Source: Bacteroidota bacterium
Lineage (GTDB): Bacteria; Bacteroidota; Bacteroidia; Bacteroidales; CG2-30-32-10
NCBI GenBank assembly: GCA_043801235.1
Contig: JAZDMF010000122.1
Coordinates: 1 to 42,507, forward strand
Length of the DNA: 42,507 nt
Direction of reading: 5' to 3'
Notes under the pieces: generated by a model
What the model was told of the DNA's origin: nothing
Database searches by the model: none
Seen by the model: the letters and a program-made list of their open reading frames with translations, nothing else
Shown here: one piece after another, positions 7,721-42,394 of the stretch
How the letters are laid out: each line of letters begins with the position of its first letter
Position numbering within the stretch: position 1 is the first letter of the stretch
Position numbers and translations under genes: made by a program

Positions 7721-7834
7721 ATGTCAAATTTATGATGTAAAATGTCAAAAGGTAAATTGTTTTTTTATGAAATTAGAAAGAAACAACTCTTTAAATTTCA
7801 TTTTTTACATGTGCAATCTGCTATTTGACATCAT
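7721..7834. repeat. Nested intergenic hairpin built from ATGTCAAA words
   Basis: ATGTCAAA at 7721-7728 and again at 7742-7749 is complementary to TTTGACAT at 7824-7831. The inner perfect 8-bp stem is ATGAAATT (7767-7774) with AATTTCAT (7794-7801). Confidence 0.7.
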
Positions 7835-7840
7835 ATTTTT

Positions 7841-8698
7841 TTACTGCAAATTCATCAGATAGTCGCCATATCCGCTTTTTAACAAGGGTTGTGCAATTTC
7901 CTCCAGTTGTTTTCTGTTAATAAACCCCATGCGGTATGCAATTTCCTCAATACAACCGATTTTAAGACCTTGCCGTTCTTCAATTACCTGAACAAACTGT
8001 GAGGCCTGCAGCAATGAACTGAAAGTGCCTGTATCCAGCCATGCTGTACCCCTGCTAAGGATACCCACTTTTAATTTTCCTTTTTCCAGATAATATTTAT
8101 TCACGTCGGTAATTTCATACTCGCCCCTTGGACTGGGTTTAATATTTTTTGCCACCTCAACAACCGAGTTATCATAAAAATACAATCCGGGAACGGCAAA
8201 ATTCGATTTGGGTTCTTTGGGTTTTTCTTCAATAGAAATAGCTTTCCGGCTTTCATCAAATTCTACTACGCCATATCTTTGCGGGTCGGAAACATGATAA
8301 GCGAAAACCACTCCTCCTTCGGGATTATTATTTTCCTGAATTAATTTCGGCAGATCGGTTCCGTAAAAAATATTATCGCCAAGAATTAACGCTATCTTTT
8401 CTTTTCCGATGAACTTTTCGCCAATAATAAAAGCCTGGGCCAGCCCGTTCGGCACAGCCTGCTCGGCATATTCAAAACTGCATCCCAGGCGAACGCCATC
8501 GCCCAGAAGTTTTTCGAAACCCGGTAAGTCGTGAGGAGTAGAAATAATCAGTATTTCCCTGATTCCTGCCATCATCAATACCGACAGAGGATAATACACC
8601 ATTGGTTTATCGTAAACCGGCATCAATTGCTTGCTTATGGCTATTGTAAGAGGGTGTAATCTTGTTCCGGAACCTCCGGCAAGTACTATTCCTTTCAT
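7841..8698 (-). CDS. rfbA: Glucose-1-phosphate thymidylyltransferase
   Basis: The N terminus [18 protein letters not shown] and a full-length resemblance to RmlA/RfbA (285 aa) support the call. Confidence 0.95.
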
Positions 8699-8741
8699 TT
8701 TTAATAAATTAAAATATATGAACTAATGAGACATTAAATAT

Positions 8742-8873
8742 CAATGTCGTTTAGTTAAGAAGAAATATTGAACCCTTTTCAGGGTTCAATTTCACAGATC
8801 ATTTATTTTCCACGGGTGCAACCCGTGGTTATTATTATTTGACTCCTCCGGAGTCCTTAACTAAACGACATTG
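8742..8873. mobile_element. 132-bp MITE with perfect 18-bp terminal inverted repeats and a 10-bp target-site duplication
   Basis: The TIR CAATGTCGTTTAGTTAAG (8742-8759) is the exact reverse complement of 8856-8873. It is flanked by the direct repeat CATTAAATAT at 8732-8741 and 8874-8883. The interior holds three GC-rich hairpins (8767-8790, 8810-8828, 8841-8856). It has no coding capacity. Confidence 0.8.
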
Positions 8874-8880
8874 CATTAAA

Positions 8881-9053
8881 TATACTGTAAACGGTTAAAA
8901 ATTTAACTTTTTGTTGAATAAAAATGCTGAATTGTTTTATTGTTAAATTGTTAAAAATTAACCAACAACAGTATGTATAAAGAATGAAAACAACAATTAA
9001 ACAATTTTAACCTGTCTGCCGACAAGGCAGGCAATATAGCCATTTAAAGTATA
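8881..9053. repeat. MITE-like intergenic element, copy 1 (second copy at 28236-28459)
   Basis: The 5' module TGTAAACGGTTAAAAATTTAACTTTTTGTTGAATAAAAATGCTGAATT (8886-8933) and the 3' module AGCCATTTAAAGTATA (9038-9053) both recur at 28236-28283 and 28444-28459. The ends are inverted repeats of each other (TATACTGTAAACGG / CCATTTAAAGTATA). Confidence 0.7.
9013..9033. repeat. GCCTGCC-type mini-palindrome (intergenic copy nested in the MITE-like element)
   Basis: TGTCTGCC (9013-9020) pairs with GGCAGGCA (9026-9033) with one transition. It lies inside a 29-nt segment (9013-9041) that is absent from the otherwise matching 3' module of the copy at 28436-28459. Confidence 0.75.
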
Positions 9054-9066
9054 TATATGATTTAAT

Positions 9067-9164
9067 CATTTTGTGAAATTTTGTGTTTTAGTGATTTTGT
9101 GGCGTTTTTCTTGCCACCAAAACACTAAAGCACAAACCTGCTTTCCGGCAGATATCACAAAAAT
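9067..9164. repeat. Long intergenic hairpin built from TTTTGTG / CACAAAA words (possible terminator of the exporter gene)
   Basis: The left arm 9067-9103 (CATTTTGTGAAATTTTGTGTTTTAGTGATTTTGTGGC) pairs collinearly with 9113-9164 (GCCACCAAAACACTAAAGCACAAA...ATCACAAAAAT). It lies just 3' of the minus-strand gene ending at 9219. Confidence 0.65.
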
Positions 9165-9218
9165 ATTATTTATCTATTATACAATCTATATTAATGCAGA
9201 CTTTTATTTTTACCAAAA

Positions 9219-11627
9219 CTATTTTTCATTTTTTTCTTCAGTCAGAATATCCTCAGCTGTTTTTTCGCTGTTATCATCCGAAACATCAACATCATAAATT
9301 TCAAGAATAGGCTGTTTAAACGATCTTGTTGTTATCATTTTGTCAAGCGTCAATATCAATGACGGAAGTACAATGATGTTAAAGAAGAGGGCAATGAATA
9401 AAGTGATGGAAATAAGCATGCCCAAGGCTTGTGTTCCGCCGAATCCTGAAACCATGAATATTCCAAAGCCAAGCACCAGAACTATCGATGCATAGATCAT
9501 GCTTATTCCTGTTTCGTTCAAAGCATTCGAAACGGAAAGCCGTATGTTCCCTGCATTCAGCTTAAGCTCATGCCTGTATTTCGACAAAAACAACAGGGCG
9601 TTGTCGATTGAAATTCCCAGCGCAACACTAAAAACAATCAAGGTTGATGGTTTAACGGGTATGCCTCCATACCCCATTATTGCCGCGGTAACAAGCAACG
9701 GGATAAGGTTGCATATCATGGCAATAATCACCATTCTGTATGAAGTGAACACAATGGCTACCAAAATTGAAATAATAAGAATTCCGATAAGCAGGCTTTC
9801 AATAAGATTATTGATAAGAAAATCGGTTCCTTTTGTGTATACAACACTATTGCCTGTAATGGTTACATCAAATTTTTCGGGATTGAAAATGGAATCGATT
9901 TTTGGCCTCAGTTTGGCTTCAATCAGTTTCATTTCCTTAGTACCTACGTCGGCCATCTGCACGCTAATGCGTGTATAGCGTTTTGTACTGTCAAGAAAGG
10001 AATGCATCAGATTTTTTTTACCTTTTACATTTGCAGGAAGATACGATAAAATAAAATCTTTTTCCATGTTATTGGGAATGCTGTAGAATGATGAGTCGCC
10101 ATTGTAAAAAGCCTGCTTGGCAAATTTAACAAATTCTGCCAGCGACAGGGCTTTGGAAAACTGCGGAAAACTATCGAGTTCCTTCTGAAGTTTATTTATT
10201 TTATTGATGGTCGACAACTTCATCACCCCGTTTTTCTTTTTCGTATCAATGGATATTTCAAAAGGCATCACCCCGTTGAAATTCTTTTCAAAAAATTTCA
10301 GATCGACATATATAGGATCGGAAGCTTTGATATCGTCAACAACTTTTCCGGAAGTTTTCATGCGTGTTACACCGTAAATACATATGATGACAAAAAGCAA
10401 AGTAACAATATACACTATGCCTCTTCTGTCGAAAATCAGGATTTTTATAGATTCTATTATTTTATTTACCTTTTTGTTTTCCAGATGTACAACATGCTTT
10501 TCCTTCGGAGGGGCCATGTAGCTGAAGATAATAGGAATTAAGGCAAGCGACACCAGATACTCTATCATTACATTGATTGATGCCACTATTCCAAATTCAC
10601 GAAGCATGGCGTTTGAAGTGAAAATGAAGGCGGCAAATCCTGTGGCAGAGGTTAAATTGGTCATCAGCGTGGCAAATCCGATACGCTTCACTACGTTTGA
10701 CAAAGCCTTGATTTTATTGCCATGCAGCCTGTATTCCCAGTGGTACTTATTAATCAGATAAATACAATTTTCAATGGCAATAATGGTAATCAGCGATGGG
10801 ATAACCCCGGTAAGGATAGTTATTTTGTAATCAAATAACGAAAGTGTTCCGAGGCTCCAGATAATACTGATAACCACAATGATCAATGATAAAAAAAAGA
10901 CCTTGGCCGATTTAAAGAAAAGTATAATTATTAATGCGGCAATCATTAATGAAAGAATGATGAAAAGAAAAAGTTCCGATTTGATTTTCTGTGTTGTTAT
11001 TGTTCTTATGTATGGAAGGCCGGAATAATGCACTTCGCTGCCTGTTTTTTCCTTGTAACTTTCAATGAGTGATTTAATATCCGAAATCATTCCCTCGCGG
11101 CTCTTGTCGTTGATTTTATTTTTATCAAGGGTTATGGCAAGCAAAAAAGCATCCTTCTCTTTATTATACAGCAGTCCGTCATAAAAAGGCAGGGAGAAAA
11201 TCAAATTGCGGATGCTGTCCACTCCGGCCTGGGTAGCCGGTTTTACAGGAGAAACCTGGTTGAAATCAAATTTTTCCTGAACCGTGTCTTTATAAATGTT
11301 CAGGACGCGTGTTATTGAAACCACTTCTTCAACGCCTTCCTTTTTCTTTATCTCACTGCATAAATCGTGCAGCGCCCGGAACTGCGACAGTTCAAAAATT
11401 TTACAGTTTTTTATTCCCACAGCAAACACATTCCCGTCTTCCCCAAACCTGTTTTTGAAAATATCATACTTGATGGATGTCGAATCGCCGGAGGAAAGCA
11501 TGCGCGGTAATTCATAAGACAACTCTACGTTCAATGCGTTATAGGCCATAAAGCCCGTCAGAAGAGCAATAACCACAATTATCCCCGGCCTGTTTCTTAA
11601 TATTAATCTGACAAGTACTGTCCACAT
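9219..11627 (-). CDS. RND-superfamily exporter (MMPL / sterol-sensing-domain type)
   Basis: The protein has two blocks of about 6 hydrophobic helices, each preceded by a large soluble loop, which is the typical MMPL/HpnN-like topology. The probable start is ATG 11627 (MWTVLVRLILRNRPG) rather than the ORF-track start at 11687. Confidence 0.75.
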   Translation of the reverse strand: MWTVLVRLILRNRPGIIVVIALLTGFMAYNALNVELSYELPRMLSSGDSTSIKYDIFKNRFGEDGNVFAVGIKNCKIFELSQFRALHDLCSEIKKKEGVEEVVSITRVLNIYKDTVQEKFDFNQVSPVKPATQAGVDSIRNLIFSLPFYDGLLYNKEKDAFLLAITLDKNKINDKSREGMISDIKSLIESYKEKTGSEVHYSGLPYIRTITTQKIKSELFLFIILSLMIAALIIILFFKSAKVFFLSLIIVVISIIWSLGTLSLFDYKITILTGVIPSLITIIAIENCIYLINKYHWEYRLHGNKIKALSNVVKRIGFATLMTNLTSATGFAAFIFTSNAMLREFGIVASINVMIEYLVSLALIPIIFSYMAPPKEKHVVHLENKKVNKIIESIKILIFDRRGIVYIVTLLFVIICIYGVTRMKTSGKVVDDIKASDPIYVDLKFFEKNFNGVMPFEISIDTKKKNGVMKLSTINKINKLQKELDSFPQFSKALSLAEFVKFAKQAFYNGDSSFYSIPNNMEKDFILSYLPANVKGKKNLMHSFLDSTKRYTRISVQMADVGTKEMKLIEAKLRPKIDSIFNPEKFDVTITGNSVVYTKGTDFLINNLIESLLIGILIISILVAIVFTSYRMVIIAMICNLIPLLVTAAIMGYGGIPVKPSTLIVFSVALGISIDNALLFLSKYRHELKLNAGNIRLSVSNALNETGISMIYASIVLVLGFGIFMVSGFGGTQALGMLISITLFIALFFNIIVLPSLILTLDKMITTRSFKQPILEIYDVDVSDDNSEKTAEDILTEEKNEK

Positions 11628-11811
11628 CGTGTTCTGCCCTTTCTGAAGAAAATCAAATATAAAGGGCATCAAAATTAACACATTCATTTGTAAAAGAAAA
11701 ATGATACCCTCTTTTTAATCCTAATATTTTGTGTTTCTGTCGGTTTCCCTCCAAGTGTATGTTTTGGCTTAATCTTTGTTTTAGGTCAAATGCAACTTTA
11801 TACATAAAGCC

Positions 11812-12975
11812 ATGAAAAAGATTTTTACCCTTCTCGTTATAACAGCAATCATCGCATCGGGTTGCGTTTCTTCCGGAAAGCTGATGCAGAAAGGCCGTTA
11901 CGACCAGGCTATAAACAAATCAGTAAAAAAATTGCTGAAAAACCCTGAAAAAGTAAAAGAGTTAACTGTTCTGGCCAGCTCTTACAAACTTGCCAACCAG
12001 AAAGACCTTGACAATATTACATTCCTGAAAAAAACCGGTGAACCCGACATATGGGATAAAATTTTTGCCACCTACAGCACAATGAAAATAAGGCAGGAAA
12101 AAGTCAAGGTGCTTTCGGATGATATTCTCGGTAAAATGGGTTTTGAATATGTAAACTACGATAACAATATAATTGAAGCCAAAAAGAAAGCTGCCGAATA
12201 TTTTTATGTTCATGCTCAGTCGCTGCTTGCCCTGAATGACCGTGATAATGCGCGCAAAGCATATTATGAGCTGGAAAAAGTAAAAAGTTATTATGCTTCG
12301 TACAGAGACTGTGATTCGCTTGTTTCCGTTGCGCTGGAACAGGGAACAGCTTATGTTCTTTTTAAAATGCAGAACGCAACAACCCTGCTCCTTCCGGCCG
12401 ATTTTGAATCGCTTCTCACAAAAATATCAATGGCCGACCTGGATCAATTATGGATAAGTTACGATACCCGGCAGGTGGAAGGGCGCAATTACGCCTATGT
12501 AATACTGATGAACATAAAAGCAATCGATGTTTCACCCGAATACATAAAAGAAATTCAGTATACCGAATCGAAAGAAGTACAGGATGGTTATACTTACCTG
12601 CTCGACTCGCTGGGCAATGTTATGCACGACAGTCTGGGCAACGATATAAAAATACCAAAATATAAAACCATATCATGCATAGTTACCGAAACACAGCAAA
12701 AGAAAACAGCTATCGTTAGCGGAACCCTTGATTACCTGAGCGCAGAAACCGAAGACCTGATTAAAACCGATCCTGTTACTGCTGAAACCTGTTTTGAAAA
12801 TTATTTTGCCAGAGCCAATGGCGATCTTGATGCTCTTTCGGATGAAACCAAAAAGAAGATTGGCAACAGCTATGTTCCTTTTCCATCCAACCCGGGAATG
12901 ATTTTGCTGGCCGGCGAGGTACTGAAAGATATGGTAAAGGATATTGTCTGGAAATACAAATCCCTGCTATCATAA
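11812..12975 (+). CDS. Hypothetical lipoprotein
   Basis: This 387-aa ORF has a signal peptide plus a lipobox-like IASGC (MKKIFTLLVITAIIASGCVSSG). I recognised no catalytic motif. Confidence 0.6.
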   Translation: MKKIFTLLVITAIIASGCVSSGKLMQKGRYDQAINKSVKKLLKNPEKVKELTVLASSYKLANQKDLDNITFLKKTGEPDIWDKIFATYSTMKIRQEKVKVLSDDILGKMGFEYVNYDNNIIEAKKKAAEYFYVHAQSLLALNDRDNARKAYYELEKVKSYYASYRDCDSLVSVALEQGTAYVLFKMQNATTLLLPADFESLLTKISMADLDQLWISYDTRQVEGRNYAYVILMNIKAIDVSPEYIKEIQYTESKEVQDGYTYLLDSLGNVMHDSLGNDIKIPKYKTISCIVTETQQKKTAIVSGTLDYLSAETEDLIKTDPVTAETCFENYFARANGDLDALSDETKKKIGNSYVPFPSNPGMILLAGEVLKDMVKDIVWKYKSLLS

Positions 12976-12980
12976 AAAAG

Positions 12981-13010
12981 AGGCTGTCTCAAAAGGACAG
13001 CCTTTTTTAT
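12981..13010 (+). terminator. Rho-independent terminator of the lipoprotein gene
   Basis: The stem GGCTGTC (12982-12988) pairs with GACAGCC (12996-13002) around a 7-nt loop. A T6 run follows at 13003-13008. The stem begins 7 nt after the stop codon (12973-12975). Confidence 0.85.
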
Positions 13011-13090
13011 TTGATCTGATCCATCAAAAACACTAACAGTATTATACAAGAAAAGGGATAAAACCTGACTTTTATTAAGTCCCAAATTTC

Positions 13091-13150
13091 AAACTACAAG
13101 CCCCAAATTCAGAGAAGACCAGAAGCATAATCCTTTGGGGCTTGGAGTTT
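13091..13150. repeat. 17-bp-stem hairpin between convergent genes (possible terminator)
   Basis: AAACTACAAGCCCCAAA (13091-13107) pairs with TTTGGGGCTTGGAGTTT (13134-13150) with one mismatch and a 26-nt loop. Confidence 0.7.
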
Positions 13151-13193
13151 AGGCCTTTTATTTAATTATCCTGTTCACAGAATATACAGATCG

Positions 13194-14156
13194 TTAAATC
13201 AAATTATTCCTTATAGCATACATAACCAGATCGGCGGTATTTTTCACGCCTGTTTTATTGAGAAGGTTCGCCCTGTGCGTTTCGATGGTTCTCTTGCTGC
13301 GTTCAAGCTGCTGCGATATTTCCGCATTTGAAAGACCCTGACAAACCATGGAAAGAATTTTTATTTCCTTTTTTGACAATGATTCTGCACTTATGTCTTT
13401 TTCATCGGAAAATACTGATTTATTTTTCGTATTGTTGCATTCTGCCATATTTCCTATCAGCGAATCAGAGCCCTTATAATTTACCATGCCTGCATACAAT
13501 TCAACCGAAATTTTTTTGTTGTCTTTATGAAACGACTGAAATTTCACATGAACGGTATTTTGAATTTTATTCAAACACCTCTGAATTTTTTCAAGGGCAT
13601 AATCTTTATCGCTTCCGGTAACAAGCTTTTCAAAAGTCAGGGTCAATAAATCTTCGCGGGTCAATCCGAATATTTTTGAGCAGGCATCATTTACGAACTC
13701 GAATTTATTTTTACAATAAATAAATGCGCCGGTAAGAGGGTTATCAATAAGTGCATAGAATTTTTCATCATTTCTTTGCTGGATCTTTTCAAATTTATCC
13801 AAACGTGTTTTTATTGAAATCAAAAGTTCGTTGTAATCAAAAGGTTTGGTAATATAATCATCGGCCCCCAGTTGCATACCTGTTCTCATATCCTCTTTTT
13901 CAGCCTTGGCCGTTAGAAAAATCAGCGGGATGGTTGAAGTGGCCTTTATTTGCTGTATGGTTTTATAAAAATCATAACCATTCATGCGGGGCATCATAAT
14001 GTCGCATAAAATAAGGTCAGGCAGATGGTTCATTGCAAGCTGCAGCCCGATAAGCCCGTCTTCGGCCAAAAGAACATCGTATCCTTCTTCCTTAAGCAAA
14101 TCGCAGGTGTTTTCCCTTAAGGTTTTGTCGTCTTCAATAATCAAGATAGTTTTCAT
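13194..14156 (-). CDS. Response regulator, REC - PAS - LuxR-type HTH
   Basis: The REC domain is visible (LLAEDG..., phospho-acceptor context LILCDIMMP, ITKP). A central PAS-like segment follows, then a C-terminal LuxR/FixJ HTH (LSKKEIKILSMVCQGLSNAEISQQLERSKRTIETHRANLLNK). It is a paralogue of 14796-15773. Confidence 0.85.
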   Translation of the reverse strand: MKTILIIEDDKTLRENTCDLLKEEGYDVLLAEDGLIGLQLAMNHLPDLILCDIMMPRMNGYDFYKTIQQIKATSTIPLIFLTAKAEKEDMRTGMQLGADDYITKPFDYNELLISIKTRLDKFEKIQQRNDEKFYALIDNPLTGAFIYCKNKFEFVNDACSKIFGLTREDLLTLTFEKLVTGSDKDYALEKIQRCLNKIQNTVHVKFQSFHKDNKKISVELYAGMVNYKGSDSLIGNMAECNNTKNKSVFSDEKDISAESLSKKEIKILSMVCQGLSNAEISQQLERSKRTIETHRANLLNKTGVKNTADLVMYAIRNNLI

Positions 14157-14210
14157 AAGTCGTAGAAGTTAAAGTTATTAATGAGGGCATAAAATAGTTT
14201 GCCTCCCGCC

Positions 14211-14286
14211 ATGCTTCGATAGATTCAGCATGACGCTCTCGCGCTTGGTCACCTTGAGAAATGTCACACTAAGCCTGTCGAAGTGT
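14211..14286. repeat. Imperfect hairpin of the widespread type that translates as ...VTLSLSK...
   Basis: ATGCTTCGATAGATTCAGCATGAC (14211-14234) opposes GTCACACTAAGCCTGTCGAAGTGT (14263-14286). 15 of 24 positions are complementary and every mismatch is a transition. It sits inside a larger unit bounded by TTATTAATG (14176-14184) and CATTAATAA (14333-14341). Confidence 0.6.
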
Positions 14287-14632
14287 AAGCGAAAGGTAAG
14301 CGTGCATTTAAAAAGCCAAAATTTACCGCTCCCATTAATAATAGTTTAATGTATCGTTAGATGTAATTCGTTTGTTCAACTGTTCTATTGTCAGATTGTT
14401 CATTTGTTTCAGCCAGACTTCGGCGTGAGCTCAATCGAACGCCGGCGGATTCGTTCGTTTGTTTTGTTCCCATTGTGATGGCAGTGCAATAAACAATCAA
14501 AACCTGCCTGCAGAAACAAAATTAGCCTCATCAGAACCGTTACACGTCAGCAAAATTGCTTAATTTTATTTTTATTTTTTATGGGAGAATAGGTAATTTT
14601 ACTTACAGGTATAAAACTAATAAATTTTATTT

Positions 14633-14759
14633 ATGGGCATCTCGAAAATCTTTAAATCTCTTCGTTCGACTTCGTTTTGCAATTCCTCATGTACAATAGG
14701 TACACTGCGGATTACAAAACTTTGTCTGCCTCGATATTTTTTGTTTTTCAAGATGCCAT
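14633..14759. repeat. About 125-nt long imperfect hairpin
   Basis: The outer stem is ATGGGCATCTCGAAAA (14633-14648) with TTTTTCAAGATGCCAT (14744-14759). The inner stem is GTTTTGCAATTCCTCATGTAC (14674-14694) with GTACACTGCGGATTACAAAAC (14700-14720), which has four mismatches and two G:T wobbles, around a 5-nt loop. Confidence 0.65.
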
Positions 14760-14795
14760 ATACGTTTTTCAGAGACGCTCTTATGCCAAAGTTTG

Positions 14796-15773
14796 CTAAT
14801 CGACAGTGATTATTTTTTTCCGGAGAGCATACAGAACAAGCCCGGCAGTATTTTTAGCTTCTGTTTTATTGAGCAGGCTGGCGCGGTGAGAATCCACTGT
14901 TCGCAAGCTGATATGGCTGGCATCGGCAATTTCGGCCGTAGAGAGCCCTATACTAACCAGTTTCAGTATTTCAATTTCCCTCTTTGATAATTTATCGGTA
15001 TTATCTGAAACACCGAAAACTGTTTTTTTGTTTTCTTTTTCAGTTATGTCAACAGCATTTCCTACGAGTGCCGGAACACCTTTGAAACTGATTAAATTTG
15101 CATAAATTTCAACATACAGTTTTTTTTGAACATCTTTGTGAAAAGCCTCGAACTCAACCTGCACACATTCATGAATACCCTTCAAGCCTCTTCGTATTTT
15201 TTCTAAAACATGTTCTACCGATTCGTTTGCAATAATATCGGCAAAGCCCATATTTTCAAAATCATGTACGTCCAGTCCGAACATTTTCGAAAATGTACTG
15301 TTCACGTACTGAAATTTATTTTCGCAGTAAATAAAAACACCGAGCAGGGGGTTATCTATCAGGGCATAGAATTTTTCATCGTACGCTTTTTGAAAACGTT
15401 CCTGTTTTTCGAGCCGTATCCTTACGGTCTGAAGCAGTTCATTCAGGTCGAAAGGTTTTGTGATATAATCATCCGCGCCCAGCTGCATTCCGGTGCGCAT
15501 ATCTTCTTTTTCGCTTTTTGCAGTAATAAAAATAAACGGAATGGCCGATGTTGTTTTTATTTGCTGAAGGGTTTTAAATAATTCAAGGCCGTTCATTCCC
15601 GGCATCATGATATCGCAAAGTATCAGGTCGGGTATCCGGCTCATGGCCGATTGTACTCCTGTTATGCCATCGGCTGCAACGGATACACAGTAACCTTCTT
15701 CATTAAGAAAATCGGTCATGTTTTCACGTAATGTGATATCATCTTCAATGATAAGGATGTTTTTCTTTTTCAT
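14796..15773 (-). CDS. Response regulator, REC - PAS - LuxR-type HTH (paralogue)
   Basis: The architecture matches 13194-14156, with LILCDIMMPGMNG, ITKPFDLNELL and the C-terminal HTH LSKREIEILKLVSIGLSTAEIADASHISLRTVDSHRASLLNK. Confidence 0.85.
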   Translation of the reverse strand: MKKKNILIIEDDITLRENMTDFLNEEGYCVSVAADGITGVQSAMSRIPDLILCDIMMPGMNGLELFKTLQQIKTTSAIPFIFITAKSEKEDMRTGMQLGADDYITKPFDLNELLQTVRIRLEKQERFQKAYDEKFYALIDNPLLGVFIYCENKFQYVNSTFSKMFGLDVHDFENMGFADIIANESVEHVLEKIRRGLKGIHECVQVEFEAFHKDVQKKLYVEIYANLISFKGVPALVGNAVDITEKENKKTVFGVSDNTDKLSKREIEILKLVSIGLSTAEIADASHISLRTVDSHRASLLNKTEAKNTAGLVLYALRKKIITVD

Positions 15774-15798
15774 TTTTTATCGGATTAACTGTAAAATT

Positions 15799-15826
15799 GC
15801 TGGTTGCTGGTTACTGGTTGCTGGCT
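15799..15826. repeat. Tandem heptamer array GCTGGTT x4
   Basis: GCTGGTT GCTGGTT ACTGGTT GCTGGCT are read directly at 15799-15826. TTCGTTTGTTCG (15831-15842) and TTCGATTGTTTGTTGC (15847-15862) follow. I saw no complementary partner array nearby. Confidence 0.85.
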
Positions 15827-15862
15827 AAATTTCGTTTGTTCGGGTATTCGATTGTTTGTTGC

Positions 15863-19885: not shown

Positions 19886-19983
19886 CTGTACAAAATTTTG
19901 AATGTGCATAAAATTAACGTGTTGGGAAACATGATTTTTTTGTTACTCGATCCCGCAACCGCAACACTGGCTCGCTCGTGATA

Positions 19984-31329: not shown

Positions 31330-31522
31330 AATTTGTTTATTGGAGTTCAAAAGTAATGATAATATATTATACAATCGGGTATTAATTGTTATTCTTCCAT
31401 GATCCCACCGAAGCACTAACCTGTTACGAATATACGAACCAATTGTACTTCGTAAATTCATATTTATTCGTACTTTGTTGTGATCAAATAAACAAGTTAT
31501 TAGCGTTTAAAATACAATCGCA

Positions 31523-35374: not shown

Positions 35375-35445
35375 CCCGCTGATACCGCTGATTTTCGCAG
35401 AAATCACATCGAAAATCATCTGCATTGTTCTGCGATATCTGCGGG
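35375..35445. repeat. Intergenic word hairpin (CCGCTGAT x2 / ATCTGC words)
   Basis: The outer stem is CCCGCTGATA (35375-35384) with TATCTGCGGG (35436-45) and one mismatch. The inner perfect 8-bp stem is GATTTTCG (35390-35397) with CGAAAATC (35410-35417). The left arm contains the direct repeat CCGCTGATA/CCGCTGATT at a 9-nt period. Confidence 0.7.
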
Positions 35446-35530: not shown

Positions 35531-35947
35531 ATGGCAGGAATCAATAAAGTTATTTTAGTGGGAAACCTCGGCAAAAACGCAGAGATACGCAGTTTTGAAA
35601 ACAACACCAAGATATCATTTTCATTGGCCACTACCGAAGTGTACAAAGCTAAGGACGGGCAGAACACCGAACAGACCGAATGGCACGAAGTGGTTTTCTG
35701 GCGCACAGGGATGACCGAATTCGCTGAACGCAACCTGAAAAAAGGAACCAAGGTTTACATAGAAGGTAAAATTCGCACCCGTTCGTGGGATGACAAGGAC
35801 GGCGCTAAAAAATACCGTACTGAAATTATAGGCGACAAGGTGGAAATACTTATTCCCAAAAAAGAAGAAACAACCATTAACAATGAACCGCAGCATGATG
35901 AGCCCGTACCACCGGCTCCAGAGCCCAGCGATGATCTTCCGTTTTAA
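35531..35947 (+). CDS. ssb: Single-stranded DNA-binding protein
   Basis: The OB-fold N terminus MAGINKVILVGNLGKNAEIR and the acidic C-terminal tip SDDLPF are present. The start is at ATG 35531, inside the longer ORF-track frame. Confidence 0.95.
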   Translation: MAGINKVILVGNLGKNAEIRSFENNTKISFSLATTEVYKAKDGQNTEQTEWHEVVFWRTGMTEFAERNLKKGTKVYIEGKIRTRSWDDKDGAKKYRTEIIGDKVEILIPKKEETTINNEPQHDEPVPPAPEPSDDLPF

Positions 35948-35954
35948 CAAAAAA

Positions 35955-35978
35955 AGCAGGAGAAATTCCTGCTTTTTT
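35955..35978. terminator. Bidirectional rho-independent terminator between ssb and the fibre gene
   Basis: The stem AGCAGGA (35955-35961) pairs with TCCTGCT (35967-35973) around a 5-nt loop. An A run precedes it and a T run follows, so it is terminator-like on both strands. Confidence 0.8.
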
Positions 35979-36059
35979 ATATCAAATAAATGATAGAAAA
36001 TATCAAATAGCAAAATGATGTTTCACATTTGAAATTTTCCAATTTCCATCATTAATAAT

Positions 36060-38177
36060 TTATTTGGACTTAAGAATTTTTATTTCATCTTTCAGGATTT
36101 CAATTTCTGCCTGTTGTTCCTGCATGGCTTTTACAAGTACTGGTATCAAACCAATATAGTTAATTCCCTTGTATTCAATGTTTGCATCTTCTTTGGCTTC
36201 TCCCGGATGTACACTGTTTTCGACCAAAGCAGGGAATACCTTTTCCATTTCCTGTGCTATAAATCCAATCTGCGTACCTGATGCAAAACCCATAAACGGA
36301 TATTCTTCAGTTTTCATATTATAGGTAACAGGCCTTAACTTTAGTACATTATCAAGTGCACTGGAATAGTTGGTAACATCTTTTTTGAATTTTTCATCGG
36401 AAGCTAAAGTCCAGGTTCCTGTATACGCACCATTGCCACTGCAATATAAGCCATATGCTGTACCACCGGTTGTGCTTGCATAACCATAAACGCCATAAAC
36501 AGGAGCTGCGGCAGTAGATGAAGCATAGCCGGATACACCGAAAACACTATTAGTTGAAGTATTACTTGCTGTTCCTTCCACACCAGTAAATTTACTTTCA
36601 AAAAAGCCGCCATACCCATACCAGTTAGCAGCATTGCTTTTACCATATACGGCTATTCCGTCATTAGTTCCGGTATTGGTATATTCGGCATGAACAGCAT
36701 GGGCAGTGTAATCGGCGCTGTCAGTAGTAAAATAACCGGCATAACGGTTGGTAGAAGCGACATGGAGTTTAGTAGATCCTGTGGGAGTGGCAGTTCCAAT
36801 TGCAACAATACCAGCCTTGGTAATGGTCATTCGTTTTACGGGATCTGTACCAGCTCCGCTTGGTCGGGTCCAGAAATTTAGATATGAGGAATAATTGCCT
36901 GCATCAGTTCCTGCTGCAACAATATTACATTCGTTACCTGTGCCAGCTATCAAAGCAGAATGAAGCAAAATTCCTCCGGCATTACCGACATTAGCGTCAG
37001 TAGCATTAAATGCAGTAGTTGCACCACCTACTAATAACTGGGTATTTTCGGAAGTATTATACACCTGTAAGGCACCTAAAGGCGTTGATGTTCCAACACC
37101 GATTTTTGTTCCATTATTAAATAAATTACTTGTTGCAATCCAGTTTGTACCATCATGACGTAAAGTTTGTCCTGATGTTCCTGTAGGAAGGGTAGATGGT
37201 GTGTCCCATTGAACAAAGGTATTCGGACTTGTTCCATGCACTGTCAAAACCTGTCCATCAATCCCATGACTGCCGTTAAAATCACGAATATGTCCCCAAT
37301 ACAAGTCAAAATAATTTGCGTTAGAGCTTCCGAGTGAAAAAATATTCGCATTAGTTATGCTCATTCCATTCATATTAATGTTATAGGTACCTGCGCTATT
37401 GCCTAATGCCAATGTTTGTGTTAATGTCTGGCTGGCTGTTCCTGTCGGGCCAGTGGCACCGGTAGCACCTGCTGCACCAGTAGCACCATTTGCTCCGGCA
37501 GTACCAGTAGGTCCGGCTGCTCCGGTTGCTCCATTTGTTCCATTAGCCCCTGTGACACCTGCTGGCCCTGTTGCTCCATTGCCTCCAGTAGCACCATTGC
37601 TTCCAGCAACACCTGTAGGACCGGTCGGACCCGTCGGGCCCATTCCTGTACCTGTTGGACCCGTTGCGCCGGTAGCACCTGTGGTACCTGTTCCGGTGGC
37701 TCCGGTAGCTCCAATAGCTCCTGCAGGACCTGTTGGACCGGTAGGGCCTGTAGTTCCTGATGTACCGGCATTGGCTGCATACATGGCAAAAGGAACAGTT
37801 AACAACTGAGATGTTCCCATGTTAGTATAAACTGATCCTCCTGCAGGATCCATTTCAACCTGCAGCCAGTAATTGCCCGAACTCCATGCAATGGCGCTGA
37901 ATGTTCCGGTAATAACTGTTCCCTGCCCCAGGCTTATTGTAAATAATCCAAACTGGTTTGTTGTGGTTGAATGCGATTCGGAATACACAATGGTTCCTGA
38001 TGATGAACCCTGATGAACTGAAAGGCGCAGCCCTACTGCCTGACTGATAAGTAAATTTCCCGAAGCATCTCTTGCCACAGCCTGGTAGTTGAATGCCTGC
38101 GGCACCTGTGCGCTCAACTGGCCGATGAATACAAGCATCAGCATAGCACTTAAAAAAGTAATGATTGTTTTTTTCAT
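36060..38177 (-). CDS. Secreted collagen-like fibre protein with C-terminal tail-fibre-type (peptidase S74-like) intramolecular chaperone domain, copy A (705 aa)
   Basis: The signal peptide is [23 protein letters not shown]|QVP. A conserved N-domain follows, then 35 G-X-Y triplets (aa 138-248, mostly G-x-T). Next come a variable beta-rich centre and a Gly/Tyr-rich block. The last 113 aa (SDEKFKKDV...LRPVTYNMK...[15 protein letters not shown]...[26 protein letters not shown]) resemble the self-cleaving chaperone domain of phage endosialidases and tail fibres. Confidence 0.8.
37434..37766 (-). repeat. Collagen-like G-X-Y coding repeat of fibre A
   Basis: The translation reads [25 protein letters not shown]...[12 protein letters not shown] with two short register interruptions (GTG-TT-GAT and GTG-M-GPT). 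The tract is locally GC-rich and is open in several frames on both strands. Confidence 0.9.
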
Positions 38178-38196
38178 GTTTTATTCTGTTTTTTTA

Positions 38197-38715
38197 TTAA
38201 TAAACTAAATTTATTTTGTTATAATTTATTTGTTTTTCGCCTTTGGAATTTTCAGTTGTGAGTTCAAGCATGTATATTCCCTGGCTGAAACTGCTGATGT
38301 CGAAGGTCACAGTATTCGTGCCTGCCGATTGTAAAACAGCTTTTGTAAGAACTACCTGCCCTACCAGATTGTACATTATTATTATATTCTCCCCGCTGCT
38401 GTTGCTGATATAACTCAGCGTGAAAATGCCGCTGGTAGGATTCGGATAAATCAGTATGTCACCCGTTACTGTTGGATTTTCAGGAATGCCAACAACATAA
38501 TCTTCGGGTTGCTGGAAACCCTGGGTAAGAAAATTACCTCCTGCAGTGAATGTTTGCACCATGGTCATTTCAGCTACTGTGAATGAAAGCATGGCGCTGC
38601 CCGTTGAGTAAAATCCTCCGGAGGAAGATATTACAGTAGGCGACAGTGTTTGCGATTGTAAAATTCCTGATATTAATATCAGGGCAAACAGCAAAACCGA
38701 TAATTTATTTTTCAT
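38197..38715 (-). CDS. Small secreted protein with T9SS C-terminal sorting domain, copy A (172 aa)
   Basis: The signal peptide is ...GILQS|QTL. A passenger of only about 75 aa follows (LSPTVISSSGGFYSTGSAMLSFTVAEMTMVQTF...LTQGFQQPE). The C-terminal domain is Por-secretion-tail-like (ILIYPNPTSGIFTLSY...GIYMLELTTENSKG...INLVY). Confidence 0.8.
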   Translation of the reverse strand: MKNKLSVLLFALILISGILQSQTLSPTVISSSGGFYSTGSAMLSFTVAEMTMVQTFTAGGNFLTQGFQQPEDYVVGIPENPTVTGDILIYPNPTSGIFTLSYISNSSGENIIIMYNLVGQVVLTKAVLQSAGTNTVTFDISSFSQGIYMLELTTENSKGEKQINYNKINLVY

Positions 38716-38861: not shown

Positions 38862-38897
38862 TAAAAAAAAATAACAGACTTTTGCAAGCCTGTTATT
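38862..38897 (-). terminator. Rho-independent terminator after fibre gene B
   Basis: On the minus strand AATAACAG (38897-38890) pairs with CTGTTATT (38877-38870) around a 12-nt loop. A T7+ run follows (plus-strand A run 38863-38869). It starts 20 nt downstream of the stop at 38917. Confidence 0.8.
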
Positions 38898-38916
38898 TTT
38901 ATAAGAGAAACTAATT

Positions 38917-40542
38917 TTATTTACTTTCTAATTCTACAATCCTGTTTTCGAGTTGTTCGATCTTAGCATTCTGTTCCTGCATGGCTTTTACAAGTACAGG
39001 TATCAAACCAATATAGTTAACTCCTTTATATTTAACATCCGGGTCTTCTTTTGCAGCTCCGGGATGTACTCCATTTTCAACCAATGTAGGGAATACTTTT
39101 TCCATTTCCTGTGCAATAAAGCCAATCTGTTTACCTGATGCAAATCCCATAAATGGATATTCTTCAGTTTTCATAGAATAAGAAACCGGCCTTAATTTTA
39201 ACACATTATCGAGTGCACTGGAATAGTTGGTAACATCTTTTTTGAATTTTTCATCGGAAGCTAAAGTCCAGGTTCCTGTATAAGCACCATTACCACTGCA
39301 ATATAAGCCATATGCTGTACCACCTGTTGTGGCTGCATAACCATAAACGCCATAAACAGGAGCAGCTGCGGATGAAGTAGCATAACCGTATACACCATAA
39401 AGACTATTAACAGAAGTATTAGTTGCTGTTGAATAAACTCCTATATATTTACTTTCAAAATAGCCACCATATCCATACCAATCAGCAGCATTGCTTTTAC
39501 CATACACAGCTACTCCGTCATAACTACCTGTATTGGTATATTCAGCATGAACAGCGTGACCCAAATAATATGCTGTATCAGTAGTAAAATAGCCTGCATA
39601 TTTTTTTGAAGCTTTCACATTCAGCAATGAAGAAGTATTGGGGGTAGTGGTTCCAATACCAACCCTACCCTGGCCATCAATTGTTAGTCTTCTTATACTA
39701 TTGGTTCCAAAATGCATTGGAACGGGGTCATATGCCCACATATTCATTTCTGTAGATTTTGCTTCAACAAAACCTGTATATGTTCCGCTAACATAAAAAT
39801 CGAGGGTTGGATTTAAAGAATTATTAACTGCAATAGCATCCTGAACCTGCAGAATGTCAGAACCAAATGGGGTGGTAGTACCAACAAGCACTCTTGAGCC
39901 GTTATCATACATAATAGAATTACCTACTGCTGTAGCCGATGTGAACTTTGCAACATAATTAGTTGTTCCGTTTACTGTACCTGAACCGGCAGGACCTGTT
40001 GGGCCTGTAACACCAGCAAGGCCTGTTGCACCATTCGCTCCGGCAGGACCTGTTGCACCATTAGCACCTGCAGGACCTGTAAGGCCAGCAGGGCCAGTAG
40101 CTCCGGTTGCACCAGTAGTTCCTGATGTACCTGCATTGGCTGCATACATGGCAAAAGGAACTGTGAGCAACTGGTCGGTTCCCATATTGGCATAGGTAGT
40201 GCCACCTGTAGGATCCATTTGTACCTGTAACCAATAATTTCCAGTACTCCAGGTAATAGCGCTGAAAGTTCCTGATACTACTGTGCCCTGACCTAATGCC
40301 ACTGTAAACAAACCAAACTGGTTAGTAGTGGGTGAATGAGTTTCGGAATACACTATAGTTCCCGAAGATGACCCCTGATGAATTGTGAGTTTTAATCCTA
40401 TAGTCTGGCTTGCCAATAAAGCTCCTGAACTATTGCGGGCAACGGCCTGATAATTGAATGCCTGAGGAACCTGTGAATATGCATGACCTACGATCATTAA
40501 CATCAACAGCGCTCCAATAAAAGAGATAATTGTTCTTTTCAT
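38917..40542 (-). CDS. Secreted collagen-like fibre protein with C-terminal tail-fibre-type (peptidase S74-like) intramolecular chaperone domain, copy B (541 aa)
   Basis: The N-domain and the last 230 aa or so match copy A. The collagen tract is shorter (16 G-X-Y triplets, aa 138-185). The central part is unrelated to that of copy A. Confidence 0.8.
   Translation of the reverse strand: MKRTIISFIGALLMLMIVGHAYSQVPQAFNYQAVARNSSGALLASQTIGLKLTIHQGSSSGTIVYSETHSPTTNQFGLFTVALGQGTVVSGTFSAITWSTGNYWLQVQMDPTGGTTYANMGTDQLLTVPFAMYAANAGTSGTTGATGATGPAGLTGPAGANGATGPAGANGATGLAGVTGPTGPAGSGTVNGTTNYVAKFTSATAVGNSIMYDNGSRVLVGTTTPFGSDILQVQDAIAVNNSLNPTLDFYVSGTYTGFVEAKSTEMNMWAYDPVPMHFGTNSIRRLTIDGQGRVGIGTTTPNTSSLLNVKASKKYAGYFTTDTAYYLGHAVHAEYTNTGSYDGVAVYGKSNAADWYGYGGYFESKYIGVYSTATNTSVNSLYGVYGYATSSAAAPVYGVYGYAATTGGTAYGLYCSGNGAYTGTWTLASDEKFKKDVTNYSSALDNVLKLRPVSYSMKTEEYPFMGFASGKQIGFIAQEMEKVFPTLVENGVHPGAAKEDPDVKYKGVNYIGLIPVLVKAMQEQNAKIEQLENRIVELESK
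39988..40131 (-). repeat. Collagen-like G-X-Y coding repeat of fibre B
   Basis: The translation reads [48 protein letters not shown]. Confidence 0.9.
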
Positions 40543-40564
40543 TTTTCTATTCTTTTTTTAATTT

Positions 40565-41083
40565 TTAATAAACTAAATTTATTTTGTTATAATTTATTTG
40601 ATTTTCGCCTTTGGAATTTTCAGTTGTGAGTTCAAGCATGTATATTCCCTGGCTGAAACTGCCGATATCAAAGGTTACCGTGTTGGTTCCTTCCGATTGC
40701 AAAACAGCTTTTGTAAGAACCACCTGCCCGACAAGGTTGTACATTTTAATTACATTTTCCCCGCTGCTGTTGCTGAAATAATTCAGCGTAAAAATGCCAT
40801 TGGTGGGATTCGGATAAATCAGTATGTCACCCGTTACTGTTGGATTTTCAGTAATGCCAACTATATAATCTTCGGGTTGCTGGAAACCCTGGGTAAGAAA
40901 ATTACCTCCTGCAGTAAATGTTTGCACCATGGTCATTTCAGCCACTGTGAACGACAGCATGGCACTGCCCGTAGAGTAAAATCCCCCGGAGGAAGATATT
41001 ACAGTGGGCGATAACGTTTGTGATTGCAGTATGCCTGTAAAAAGCATAAGTGCAAAAAACACATTCCAGATTTTAGTTTTCAT
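40565..41083 (-). CDS. Small secreted protein with T9SS C-terminal sorting domain, copy B (172 aa)
   Basis: In the mature part it differs from 38197-38715 at only about 10 positions, while the signal peptide is diverged. The YPNP...GIYMLEL C-terminal sorting domain is the same. Confidence 0.8.
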   Translation of the reverse strand: MKTKIWNVFFALMLFTGILQSQTLSPTVISSSGGFYSTGSAMLSFTVAEMTMVQTFTAGGNFLTQGFQQPEDYIVGITENPTVTGDILIYPNPTNGIFTLNYFSNSSGENVIKMYNLVGQVVLTKAVLQSEGTNTVTFDIGSFSQGIYMLELTTENSKGENQINYNKINLVY

Positions 41084-41117
41084 TTTTTTATTGTTTAATA
41101 CTTTTGGTTAGCGAAAG

Positions 41118-41144
41118 CAAAGTTAATTTTTTTTAAAAATCAAA
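41118..41144 (-). promoter_or_regulatory. Candidate promoter of the distal small-protein/fibre pair
   Basis: The minus strand reads TTTG (41144-41141), a 15-nt spacer, then TAACTTTG (41125-41118). The box lies 35 nt upstream of the ATG at 41083. The layout matches the candidate at 38740-38765. Confidence 0.35.
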
Positions 41145-41182
41145 CTCGCTTTTTATCAAATAAATACTTATACAATTATCTA

Positions 41183-42064
41183 TTACCATTCCAGGCTGTC
41201 CTCAAGCCTTATCTCATCCAGATCTTCTTTGCTGAGGCCGTGCCAAGTGCAACCTTTTTTTGCGCATATAAAAAAGTCGATCATTTTTGTTCGGGCGCTG
41301 ACAAGTATTTTCGCGATCTGTGTTCCGCATTTTTCACATTTTCCTTTATGTACTATCAGGCTTTTATCGCAGTGGAAACAACTGATATCGCCCACACTCT
41401 GATCTTCCGGCAGGAAAATAGTAGATTTTGAAGAAAAAACATTGAGGTAAGGGCTTAAAAGTATGTAACCTGATTCTCCTTCTTTCTTTACAATTTTTAT
41501 TTTAAGCATATCATCTTCGATCAACGATTTTTTGCAATGGGGACAATAGGTTTGAAGGAAGCTTCCGGATTCAATAATTTCTTTCCGTTTTTCTTTTTGC
41601 TTTTTTGTCTTTCTCGTTACTTTGTTATTTACAATTTCATCGGAATGAAAATGAACTTTCATCCCAAACTCTTGATGTAGTTTTGCAAGTGCACCCGAAA
41701 GGTCTACAAAACTAATATTATGATTTTTACAACCATTGCGCGAACAAAAATTAATTTTACCTCCAATTTCAAGGAGTACTGAAGACATAGGAGCACGGCA
41801 GGCAGTGCAAAGTTCCTGAGAGGTAATTATAGATTTGCAATGGGGGCATAAAAAAACGGTGACGACACCAGGTTCAATCGTTATTTCGGAATAATAATTA
41901 CAGCTTTCGTATATTGAGCTTAATCTTATAAAGCCCGATTTTCCGGGTATTTCGATATTAAGTTGGATACTGGGTTCATTATCTACTTTATGCTCATTAT
42001 CCATAAGTGATTTGTTGCACACAGGGCATTTAACGTGCAATGAAATAAAATTGAAATTGTTCAT
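41183..42064 (-). CDS. Internally duplicated multi-zinc-ribbon protein, function unknown (293 aa)
   Basis: Two homologous halves each carry CPxCxKSL ... G(F/Y)I(R/L)LS ... C(P/F)HC ... CxxC ... Cx4Cx2H. They are joined by a Lys/Arg-rich linker (KVTRKTKKQKEKRKE). I recognised no enzyme motif. Confidence 0.6.
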   Translation of the reverse strand: MNNFNFISLHVKCPVCNKSLMDNEHKVDNEPSIQLNIEIPGKSGFIRLSSIYESCNYYSEITIEPGVVTVFLCPHCKSIITSQELCTACRAPMSSVLLEIGGKINFCSRNGCKNHNISFVDLSGALAKLHQEFGMKVHFHSDEIVNNKVTRKTKKQKEKRKEIIESGSFLQTYCPHCKKSLIEDDMLKIKIVKKEGESGYILLSPYLNVFSSKSTIFLPEDQSVGDISCFHCDKSLIVHKGKCEKCGTQIAKILVSARTKMIDFFICAKKGCTWHGLSKEDLDEIRLEDSLEW

Positions 42065-42214
42065 TGTTTCTCCTGATTTTCCATGTTCAAAGTATTTTAT
42101 CAGATTATTTAACGAATGTACTAAAAATAAATTATTTATTTCAGAAAGCTTTAAAAAACTTTCTTTAAAATATTTAGTTAATGAATCGCAATAAAAAAAT
42201 CCTTGAAATTGATT

Positions 42215-42394
42215 ATCCTCGGGGCAAGCCTGCCCGACTATGTCATTCAGGCGGGCCCACGAGGTATTAAACCAATTTCATTCCGACTACGTCGAAAACG
42301 GATTTTTATATTCACCCCTCTGTCAGCTATACAGCTGACATCTCCCCTTGAAACAATGGGAGATTACAAGGAAACCCCGACTCAAGAGTCGGGG
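42215..42394. repeat. Cluster of GC-rich hairpins in the spacer upstream of the zinc-ribbon gene
   Basis: TGTCAGCT (42321-42328) pairs with AGCTGACA (42333-42340) around a 4-nt loop. ATCTCCC (42339-42345) pairs with GGGAGAT (42358-42364). CCCCGACT (42375-42382) pairs with AGTCGGGG (42387-42394) around the loop CAAG. CCTCG (42217-42221) pairs with CGAGG (42259-42263), enclosing GC-rich segments. Confidence 0.7.

Follow-up and report, generated by a model that had tools for sequence, protein, structure and literature searches.

The intergenic spacers of a 42,507-nt contig from a Bacteroidota bacterium (JAZDMF010000122.1 of assembly GCA_043801235.1, positions 1 to 42,507; "the window") contain hairpins in which each arm repeats a short word several times in a row, and hairpins of this kind also flank the window's two genes for GxxExxY proteins. 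We put the probability at roughly 60% that these word hairpins are gene-less versions of cassettes, all of one family, that lie in transcribed operon spacers of Bacteroidota and that resemble the intervening sequences (IVSs) of rRNA genes. A cassette would consist of two complementary arms, each with at least three copies of a short word, and its loop would be either empty or occupied by a small gene. This is the best-supported reading, and in it at least two classes of cassette are set apart by the design of their words and by their cargo: CAC words go with GxxExxY genes, and strict heptamers go with genes for four-helix-bundle proteins. The architecture of the cassettes, their conservation, the link between cargo and word, the operon context, and the turnover between relatives are all observed. 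An earlier note on this DNA had proposed an analogy to repetitive extragenic palindromes (REPs) and REP-associated tyrosine transposases (RAYTs). A protein-plus-hairpin system does exist, and it is nearer to an IVS than to REP/RAYT.

GxxExxY genes and the CAC class of hairpins

The GxxExxY comparison set comprised 80 metagenome loci that encode relatives of the window's proteins (50–77% identity), and 73 of these loci had sufficient flanking sequence. (Numbers such as L081 and L163 are labels of the related loci that were retrieved for comparison.) In 43 of the 73 loci, the GxxExxY gene lies exactly between the left arm and the right arm of one hairpin. Another eight have a complete hairpin on either side of the gene, which is the window's form, and six have no arms. 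In what we call the CAC class, CACNNAG words stand opposite CTNNGTG words, and the outer ends are ACCAC and GTGGT. The periods between words are 8-9-10 in 18 of 19 left arms that have four words and 10-9-8 in 13 of 13 right arms, and the median distance of the inner word to the start or stop codon is 2 nt. The duplex between the arms has a mean energy of -49 kcal/mol. Across proteins of 43–77% identity, the arms keep to this one class, with the CACNNAG words, the spacing, and the ends fixed; arms are kept even in members at 43–45% identity from Bacteroides finegoldii (directly after radA) and Bernardetia.

Within the class, three variants of the word (TNAG, RRAG, and ATAG) can be told apart, and the nearest protein relative shares the variant in 68 of 75 cases (in 1000 shuffles, the number averaged 34 and never exceeded 50). 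The type of CAC word tracks the relatedness of the GxxExxY proteins, and the suspicion in the earlier note that these proteins are tied to a structured repeat was well founded. The cassettes are co-oriented with both of their neighbors in 35 of 41 loci, so they lie within operons and are presumably co-transcribed. There were 183 CAC arrays in 376 kb of GxxExxY loci, versus 9 in 1.31 Mb of other Bacteroidota loci (and 15 in shuffles); within the loci compared, the class is confined to the neighborhoods of GxxExxY genes. Only eight plasmid records have a relative, and all eight were typed as non-mobilizable, so these records gave no evidence of mobility. Separately, we rejected two split CAC arrays: the one in L011 is a chance match, and the one in L001 is actually the downstream arm of a four-helix-bundle cassette.

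In the window, GxxExxY gene 1 (2213-2626, plus strand; PF13366 / TIGR04256) is inserted between sufS and sufE, and gene 2 (20536-20946, minus strand), whose protein is 71% identical to that of gene 1, has a response-regulator gene and a histidine-kinase gene as its neighbors. Both genes are flanked on each side by a complete hairpin of 85–100 nt, with CACxxxx words opposite xxxxGTG words, and RNAfold z scores for the four hairpins range from -3.1 to -12.8. (We scored structure as the RNAfold z relative to dinucleotide shuffles, given below as plus strand / minus strand.) Upstream of gene 1 is the hairpin at 2106-2205 (z = -4.8 / -5.5), which has four CACTAAG/CACTTAG words on the left and four CTTAGTG/CTCAGTG words on the right; a direct repeat of it, with 88–91% identity, follows the gene at 2640-2740. 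The hairpin at 20450-20535 (z = -12.8 / -8.2; CACGGAG / CTCTGTG at periods 8-9-10) adjoins gene 2, and its counterpart on the opposite flank is at 20960-21045 (z = -7.4 / -7.3). All four of these hairpins belong to the CAC class.

Both proteins match solely PF13366 PDDEXK_3 / TIGR04256 and not the HUH single-tyrosine transposases. The best PDB matches to an AlphaFold model (pLDDT 74) were weak (none had E <= 0.001), and all were of the PD-(D/E)XK type (Cas4, splicing endonuclease, lambda exonuclease, and Hjc); a sequence search of the PDB found no homolog of GxxExxY. Across 82 sequences, in which the open reading frames (ORFs) are intact, G29, E32, and Y35 of the motif as well as the nuclease's catalytic triad (D72 and E82-x-K84) are invariant or nearly so (at least 99%). 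Clustering at 50% identity divides this very large family into 15,450 clusters. Our literature searches found no paper on the function of GxxExxY and no description of GxxExxY genes inside hairpins, although most subscription journals were not covered and an earlier description is possible.

Two close relatives of the window at the suf locus illustrate how the hairpins change. In both L163 (whose GxxExxY protein is 86% identical to the window's) and L081 (SufD 87% and SufS 88% identical), the GxxExxY gene is at the same sufS|sufE site and lies between single arms, so the window's double-hairpin form is derived. When window 2106-2740 is set beside L163 1-530 and L081 3940-4460, each single arm is seen to have become a full hairpin in the window.

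The relatives also differ in their gene-less hairpins. L081 has a canonical gene-less CAC hairpin in its sufD|sufS spacer; at that place, the window's one structure is a weak and unrelated stem. In the sufE|FeS_P spacer, to which both the window and L163 give just 5 nt, L081 has a gene-less hairpin in inverted order (right-arm words, the apex GTGGCG...GCCAC, and then left-arm words). Gene-less CAC hairpins do show presence/absence polymorphism between close relatives.

The earlier note had listed ten spacer elements, which we number E1–E10 in order of position, and had taken them to share the design of the hairpins that flank the GxxExxY genes. An array scan of the whole window found no CAC class in E1 or in E3–E10. 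The exception is E2 (9067-9164, z = -7.6 / -6.4), whose design was confirmed: a right-arm row of four xxxxGTG words (TTTTGTG) that ends in GTGG is followed by a short loop, CCAC, and a left-arm row of CACxxxx words (CACAAAA). This is an inverted and degenerate form of the class, and both the order and the apex GTGGCG...GCCAC are shared with the L081 hairpin in the sufE|FeS_P spacer. A small GC palindrome is nested within E2 at 9136-9153. By its words, E2 is the sole listed orphan (that is, gene-less element) of the GxxExxY class; the window's CAC class consists of the four cassette hairpins and E2 only.

Other word hairpins and a second cargo

The window comes from the genome of a Bacteroidales-like member of the Bacteroidota, with about 38% G+C, and its genes are nearly all housekeeping genes on the minus strand. 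In a collection of species-representative genomes, the top match to its RmlA was 87% identical and came from Lentimicrobiaceae and freshwater Bacteroidales metagenome-assembled genomes (MAGs). Groundwater metagenomes contain fragments that are near-identical to the window, and four of them cover it only as contigs of about 200 nt at a depth of 2–3, which is too thin for following the gain or loss of hairpins. All of the elements discussed here are located between protein-coding genes, and no rRNA was found in the window.

We searched for word hairpins with a formal detector (a 7-nt word with at most one mismatch, a period of 7–11, at least 2+2 copies, and a complementary row within 100 nt). 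It had 12 matches in the window, versus a mean of 0.6 and a maximum of 2 in 30 shuffles; a stricter version (at least five copies) had six matches versus none in the shuffles. These excesses show that the word-array design is real and not due to chance. The matches include the four cassette flanks, 8930-9012, 9087-9129 (E2), 25558-25652 (E7), and 25850-25925 (E8), as well as 28381-28510 and 31425-31472. The other two are false positives within coding repeats.

Besides E2, the word design was confirmed for E7 (25557-25674), E8 (25851-25926), and E9 (35375-35445). In E7, three (T/G)CTAAAC words stand opposite two GTTTAGA words at period 7, and the fold is weak (z = -1.7 / -3.3). E8 has five AATGTAG words opposite two CTACATT words, also at period 7 (z = -4.2 / -2.8), and E9 has two words per arm at a 9-nt period (CCGCTGAT / ATCTGCGG; z = -3.4 / -5.6), each with one central mismatch. 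E1 (7721-7834, z = -2.7 / -2.2) is marginal: its hairpin is weak and imperfect, and two ATGTCAAA words are matched by a single complementary one, TTTGACAT. As the earlier note had reported, E6 (15799-15826) is a bare tandem row of four GCTGGTT heptamers with no partner arm, so that a z score is not applicable; it is half of a word-array hairpin. Tandem Repeats Finder reports period-7 repeats of 4.0 copies at 15797-15824, 2.9 copies at 25559-25578, and 5.1 copies at 25846-25881, and E6, E7, and E8 are all non-coding rows of head-to-tail 7-nt units.

The common design does not extend to the other four listed elements. E3 (13091-13150, z = -3.1 / -3.8) is a plain, GC-rich, terminator-like stem of 11 bp, without words, and may be the terminator of the convergent gene; no other listed element is a candidate terminator. 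E4 (14211-14286, z = -1.5 / -3.3) is weak and has no words, E5 (14633-14759, z = -5.3 / -9.6) is a strongly structured but imperfect hairpin of 127 nt without words, and E10 (42215-42394, z = -6.3 / -5.2) is a series of four or five simple GC-rich hairpins, again without words. These three are structured elements of another kind than the word hairpins. E4 and E10 can both be described as runs of simple GC-rich hairpins within AT-rich spacers. E5 lies 37 nt past the stop codon of a response-regulator gene and has no further copy in any retrieved sequence.

On the other hand, the earlier note overlooked the word hairpins at 8930-9012 and 31425-31472, along with a related element at 28236-28462. 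Together with E2, E7, E8, E9, and (weakly) E1, the first two are true word-array hairpins. The hairpin at 8930-9012 (AATTGTT/AACAATT words, period 8) is part of an element at 8886-9060 in which a GC mini-palindrome is nested at 9013-9036. The element at 28236-28462, within the operon for biotin carboxylase and biotin carboxyl carrier protein (BCCP), is a second copy from the same family; it has direct rows of TTAGCAAT words and no significant fold (RNAfold z near 0). The two have a common 65-nt end (8886-8950 and 28236-28300, 83% identity) and common inverted termini, TAAACGGTTAAA and TTTAACCATTTA. With the exception of this shared end, each element in the window does have its own word, as the earlier note had it. 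The hairpin at 31425-31472 (TACGAAT / ATTCGTA) lies between recX and prfB.

Several small palindromes and one larger structure lie near these elements. The GC-rich mini-palindrome CCTGCC...GGCAGG is nested in word hairpins at 9013-9036, 9136-9153 (inside E2), and 25806-25824, and it is also present in arms of L100, L102, and L163 (in L163, within the GxxExxY cassette's left arm). With the look of a tiny mobile palindrome, it resembles a classical REP more closely than do the word hairpins. Immediately upstream of rmlA, an 18-bp outer stem at 8740-8880 encloses three GC-rich hairpins to form a 141-nt four-way junction (z near -10 on both strands). It has no match in Rfam and is neither a tRNA nor a tmRNA; contigs from four groundwater metagenomes differ at five of its positions, four of which are unpaired.

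The earlier note's claim that hairpins of the word-array kind fill nearly all long spacers goes too far. The window has 24 spacers that measure 85 nt or more, and 15 of them contain a 110-nt stretch with z <= -3.2 (the minimum in coding controls was -2.8), and four of these 15 are ordinary T-tract terminators with a short stem. The other nine have no structure beyond that of the coding control. Terminators do not account for the word hairpins either, a possibility that the earlier note had raised against itself. A scan of 7000-26999 found canonical terminators at 12976-13008 and 22955-22976, and we read two more from the sequence, at about 35950-35980 and about 38885-38905. E2, E7, E8, and E9 are not among the matches of the scan (over the range given), and by eye none of them has a canonical short GC stem and a run of T. 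Word hairpins sit between co-directional genes, in part within operons. Rfam had zero matches in the window at gathering thresholds, and in E-value mode its lone match was to a small RNA at 35864-36039, at the level of chance.

The words of the orphans other than E2 (TCTAAAC, AATGTAG, CCGCTGAT, AATTGTT, TACGAAT, and GCTGGTT) are all unrelated to CACNNAG, but words of non-CAC types do enclose a gene in other genomes. In L082, a word hairpin that is split by 460 nt encloses a four-helix-bundle gene (PF05635, "23S rRNA IVS protein"), and the neighboring spacers have four gene-less hairpins with the same AATGAC/GTCATT words. Of nine four-helix-bundle genes, six lie between inverted heptamer rows (L082, L001, L166, L167, L171, and L172), and the words of these cassettes are strict heptamers, for example AGTGCxx, AATGACx, and TAACTAA. 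The cassettes of two distant relatives, L167 (2855-3436) and L172 (1415-1946), are at the junction of the genes for biotin carboxylase and BCCP. The same junction in the window has the gene-less word element at 28230-28462, which suggests that it is a recurrently used insertion site within the operon. The four-helix-bundle gene of L082 (1609-1974) has an in-frame stop codon, and this copy of the cargo may be decaying; decay of the ORF in the Coxiella IVS is likewise reported.

The IVS in the 23S rRNA of Coxiella has a comparable layout. An ORF for S23p lies in the loop of a 28-bp stem that is formed by inverted termini, three or four tandem GACAGAT heptamers (the number varies among strains) come just before the start codon, and RNase III cuts the IVS out (PMC4990558). 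E6, E7, and E8 share their period of 7 nt with the four-helix-bundle cassettes and with the Coxiella IVS, and judging by their words they have the heptamer design of the four-helix-bundle cassettes.

These observations bear on the idea, implicit in the earlier note, that all of the orphans are REP-like repeats that are spread and maintained by GxxExxY proteins, with a cognate GxxExxY gene for each word family. GxxExxY genes are indeed flanked by their own hairpins, with word types that track the protein tree; gene-less copies exist and are polymorphic between relatives; and the GxxExxY motif and the catalytic residues D72 and E82-x-K84 are conserved in the 82 sequences. However, the arms keep to CACNNAG across 43–77% protein identity, and nine of the ten orphans lack it. 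Nor is the CAC class found away from GxxExxY genes. Other word classes enclose a different, non-nuclease protein, and word hairpins are also present in loci that have no GxxExxY gene, which speaks against one GxxExxY gene per word family. No finding links the majority of the orphans to GxxExxY, and we consider this explanation very improbable.

Origin of the hairpins and proposed mechanism

The orphans of the window are lineage-specific. The window's MMPL|rmlA spacer, in which E2 lies together with two further elements, measures 520 nt, compared with 15–250 nt in 11 syntenic relatives, and the rmlA|epimerase spacer, which has E1, is 174 nt long versus 17–21 nt in L021 and L025. Hairpins with other words, and with no GxxExxY gene nearby, fill the spacer that precedes rmlA in Chitinophagaceae, Hymenobacter, Larkinella, Runella, and the closest Lentimicrobiaceae MAG, and in L010 a GATGCTG array similar to E6 adjoins rmlA.

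The main rival for the non-CAC orphans, and especially for the single-copy elements E7, E8, and E9, is that they arise locally, without a dedicated protein or mobility: slippage would amplify a word, template switching would copy the row to the other arm, and the resulting intergenic stem would persist because it does no harm or is of slight use (as the 3' end of an RNA, as a processing site, or as an insulator). Each orphan has a word of its own, and apart from the 65-nt end shared by the 8886 and 28236 elements, we found no further copy of any orphan, either in the window or in 1.7 Mb of related sequence. Some rows are bare and lack a partner arm (E6, and arrays in L010 and L013), and the MMPL|rmlA spacer is filled by different words in different genomes. 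Similarly, intergenic rows of heptamers, as direct repeats only, are known from Bacteroidetes and Cyanobacteria and are absent from close relatives (PMC4679880), and the number of heptamers in Coxiella varies among strains (PMC4990558). However, some words return in distant genomes: AATTGTT is seen again in Hymenobacter (L078) and Pontibacter (L043), and the word class ACGAAT in L082 and L026 (ACGAAT/ACGGAT in four loci), so the words are not entirely free. Also against local origin are the four copies of one word hairpin in L082, the shared ends of the 8886 and 28236 elements, and a design that is the same as that of cassettes with cargo. We consider a purely local origin unlikely.

Foldback miniature transposable elements, moved in trans by a transposase that is encoded elsewhere, could also leave hairpins in spacers. 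The shared inverted termini of 8886-9060 and 28236-28462 (TAAACGGTTAAA and TTTAACCATTTA), the small GC palindromes nested in larger elements, and the expansion of spacers relative to those of relatives would fit. But no target-site duplications could be defined, the window has no transposase gene, and most orphans are single-copy in all of the sequence compared, so we view this explanation as quite improbable.

Several results weigh against our own reading, in which the word hairpins are gene-less members of an IVS-like cassette family. Three four-helix-bundle genes, all from Flavobacteriaceae, have no arms. For the non-CAC orphans, neither the ORF listing nor tblastn (with six four-helix-bundle proteins and GxxExxY as queries) found a cargo gene or a remnant of one in 14157-14795, 25528-25993, or 42065-42507, and what would link these orphans to the four-helix-bundle cassettes is solely the likeness of their design. 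Non-CAC word hairpins are only about 1.5 times as dense in GxxExxY loci as elsewhere (0.059 versus 0.040 per kb). The arms of 27 cassettes show no asymmetry between sense and antisense in G-U versus A-C pairing (p = 0.95), so a role as RNA is not favored over a role as DNA. Finally, just two or three metatranscriptome reads, at a depth of 2, cover the gene-less hairpin and the GxxExxY gene of L081, and these could be DNA carry-over.

If the word hairpins are gene-less cassettes, then they would most likely work as follows. The element would be transcribed with its host operon, and in the transcript the arms would pair into a stem of about 30–40 bp. RNase III would cut this stem, as it does in rRNA IVSs, which would leave the neighboring genes undisturbed and free the mRNA of any cargo. 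The weakest step is the origin and spread of the elements: words would multiply via slippage, template switching within the hairpin would uphold the complementarity of the arms, and recombination would copy whole hairpins into new spacers. In the CAC class, the GxxExxY nuclease may aid this copying by cutting hairpin or cruciform DNA. We infer the cutting by RNase III, the slippage and template switching, and any action of GxxExxY on the hairpin.

A more far-reaching proposal, which we regard as possible but doubtful, is that the word hairpins form the arms of selfish operon-spacer cassettes that resemble rRNA IVSs in build and make up a superfamily not described before, with sister classes that differ by word and cargo. 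GxxExxY would then be a nuclease specific to the structure and word of its own class: it would cut gene-less hairpins of that class, and repair would copy the gene into them. The window's other orphans would belong, without a gene, to the sister classes with four-helix-bundle cargo. If true, the GxxExxY gene would home into a hairpin instead of an intron, and this would account for about 15,000 clusters of proteins of unknown function. In any case, GxxExxY is a very large family whose gene nearly always lies in the sense orientation in an operon, enclosed by a single hairpin of sharply defined design. Also, long lineage-specific hairpins in the spacers of Bacteroidota should not be read by default as regulatory RNAs or terminators.

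We also noticed features of other genes in the window. The prfB gene (release factor 2, 30240-31330) seems to extend upstream of its listed ORF, as a programmed +1 frameshift is expected, and part of the "spacer" at 31140-31522 is therefore coding. A module of two genes, for a collagen-repeat protein with a Peptidase_S74 chaperone domain and a small protein with a Por secretion tail, is duplicated in tandem (36060-38715 and 38917-41083, 75–85% nucleotide identity). The histidine-kinase gene at 21047-22729 contains five tandem copies of a 63-nt repeat (22289-22615), which encode a repeated segment of 21 residues.

Comparison with known systems

Genes for free-standing homing endonucleases include some of the PD-(D/E)XK type, such as I-Ssp6803I. 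Like GxxExxY, a homing endonuclease gene is a small nuclease gene in the middle of a sequence whose gene-free version is continuous and possibly cleavable (here, the gene-less hairpin). Unlike homing endonuclease genes, the cassettes showed no intron or intein context and no defined pair of empty and occupied alleles, and they are known from sequence alone.

The attC cassettes of integrons are also small, promoter-less, co-oriented genes that are bounded by imperfect hairpin palindromes and rely on an outside promoter, and the hairpin-gene-hairpin order in the window resembles gene-attC units in series. In contrast to integrons, there is no integrase and no attI, the cassettes are single and scattered among housekeeping operons, and the commonest arrangement is a gene inside one hairpin.

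The heptamer rows known as LSSR or STRR, in Cyanobacteria, Bacteroidetes, and Beggiatoaceae (for example, the TAACTGA repeats), are rows of 7-nt words in spacers, often by start codons (PMC4679880). Their phyla are those considered here, and their description applies to E6 as well as to the arms of E7 and of E8. What that literature does not have is a row that pairs with its complement as a hairpin, or a gene held between the rows.

In both the REP/RAYT and the GxxExxY systems, one gene has palindromic repeats of its own on its two sides (arms are lacking in only 6 of the 73 GxxExxY loci), and gene-less repeats are found elsewhere in intergenic DNA. The analogy fails at the protein and at the repeat. 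RAYTs are HUH/Y1 transposases (IS200/IS605-like, Y1_Tnp), whereas GxxExxY has the PD-(D/E)XK fold. REPs are GC-rich palindromes of 20–40 nt with a conserved GTAG/CGTC head and tens to hundreds of near-identical copies (PMC3733652). The hairpins here are 70–130 nt, AT-rich, built from words, and each unique in the window, and we found no short, near-identical repeats in multiple copies in the window and 1.7 Mb of related loci (the orphans are 60–180 nt).

The closest likeness is to the rRNA IVSs of Coxiella, Leptospira, and Xanthomonas. Here too, complementary termini form a long stem, and its loop contains either a small ORF or nothing; among the cassettes, a long stem encloses an ORF in 43 of 73 GxxExxY loci and for six of nine four-helix-bundle genes. 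As in the cassettes, tandem heptamers are found in the arm by the start codon, in strain-variable number, and IVSs are viewed as selfish and lie in the sense orientation within a transcribed unit (PMC4990558). Six loci in our set even have a PF05635 protein between the word rows. The cassettes differ from rRNA IVSs in that they occupy the spacers of protein-coding operons rather than helix 25 or 45 of 23S rRNA, that one class houses a PD-(D/E)XK nuclease instead of S23p, and that many copies are gene-less and merely 70–130 nt long; cutting by RNase III is assumed here by analogy. The unrelated small protein of rRNA IVSs is nevertheless housed in the same way as GxxExxY, and rRNA IVSs may belong, as a special case, to a broader class of parasites of spacers.

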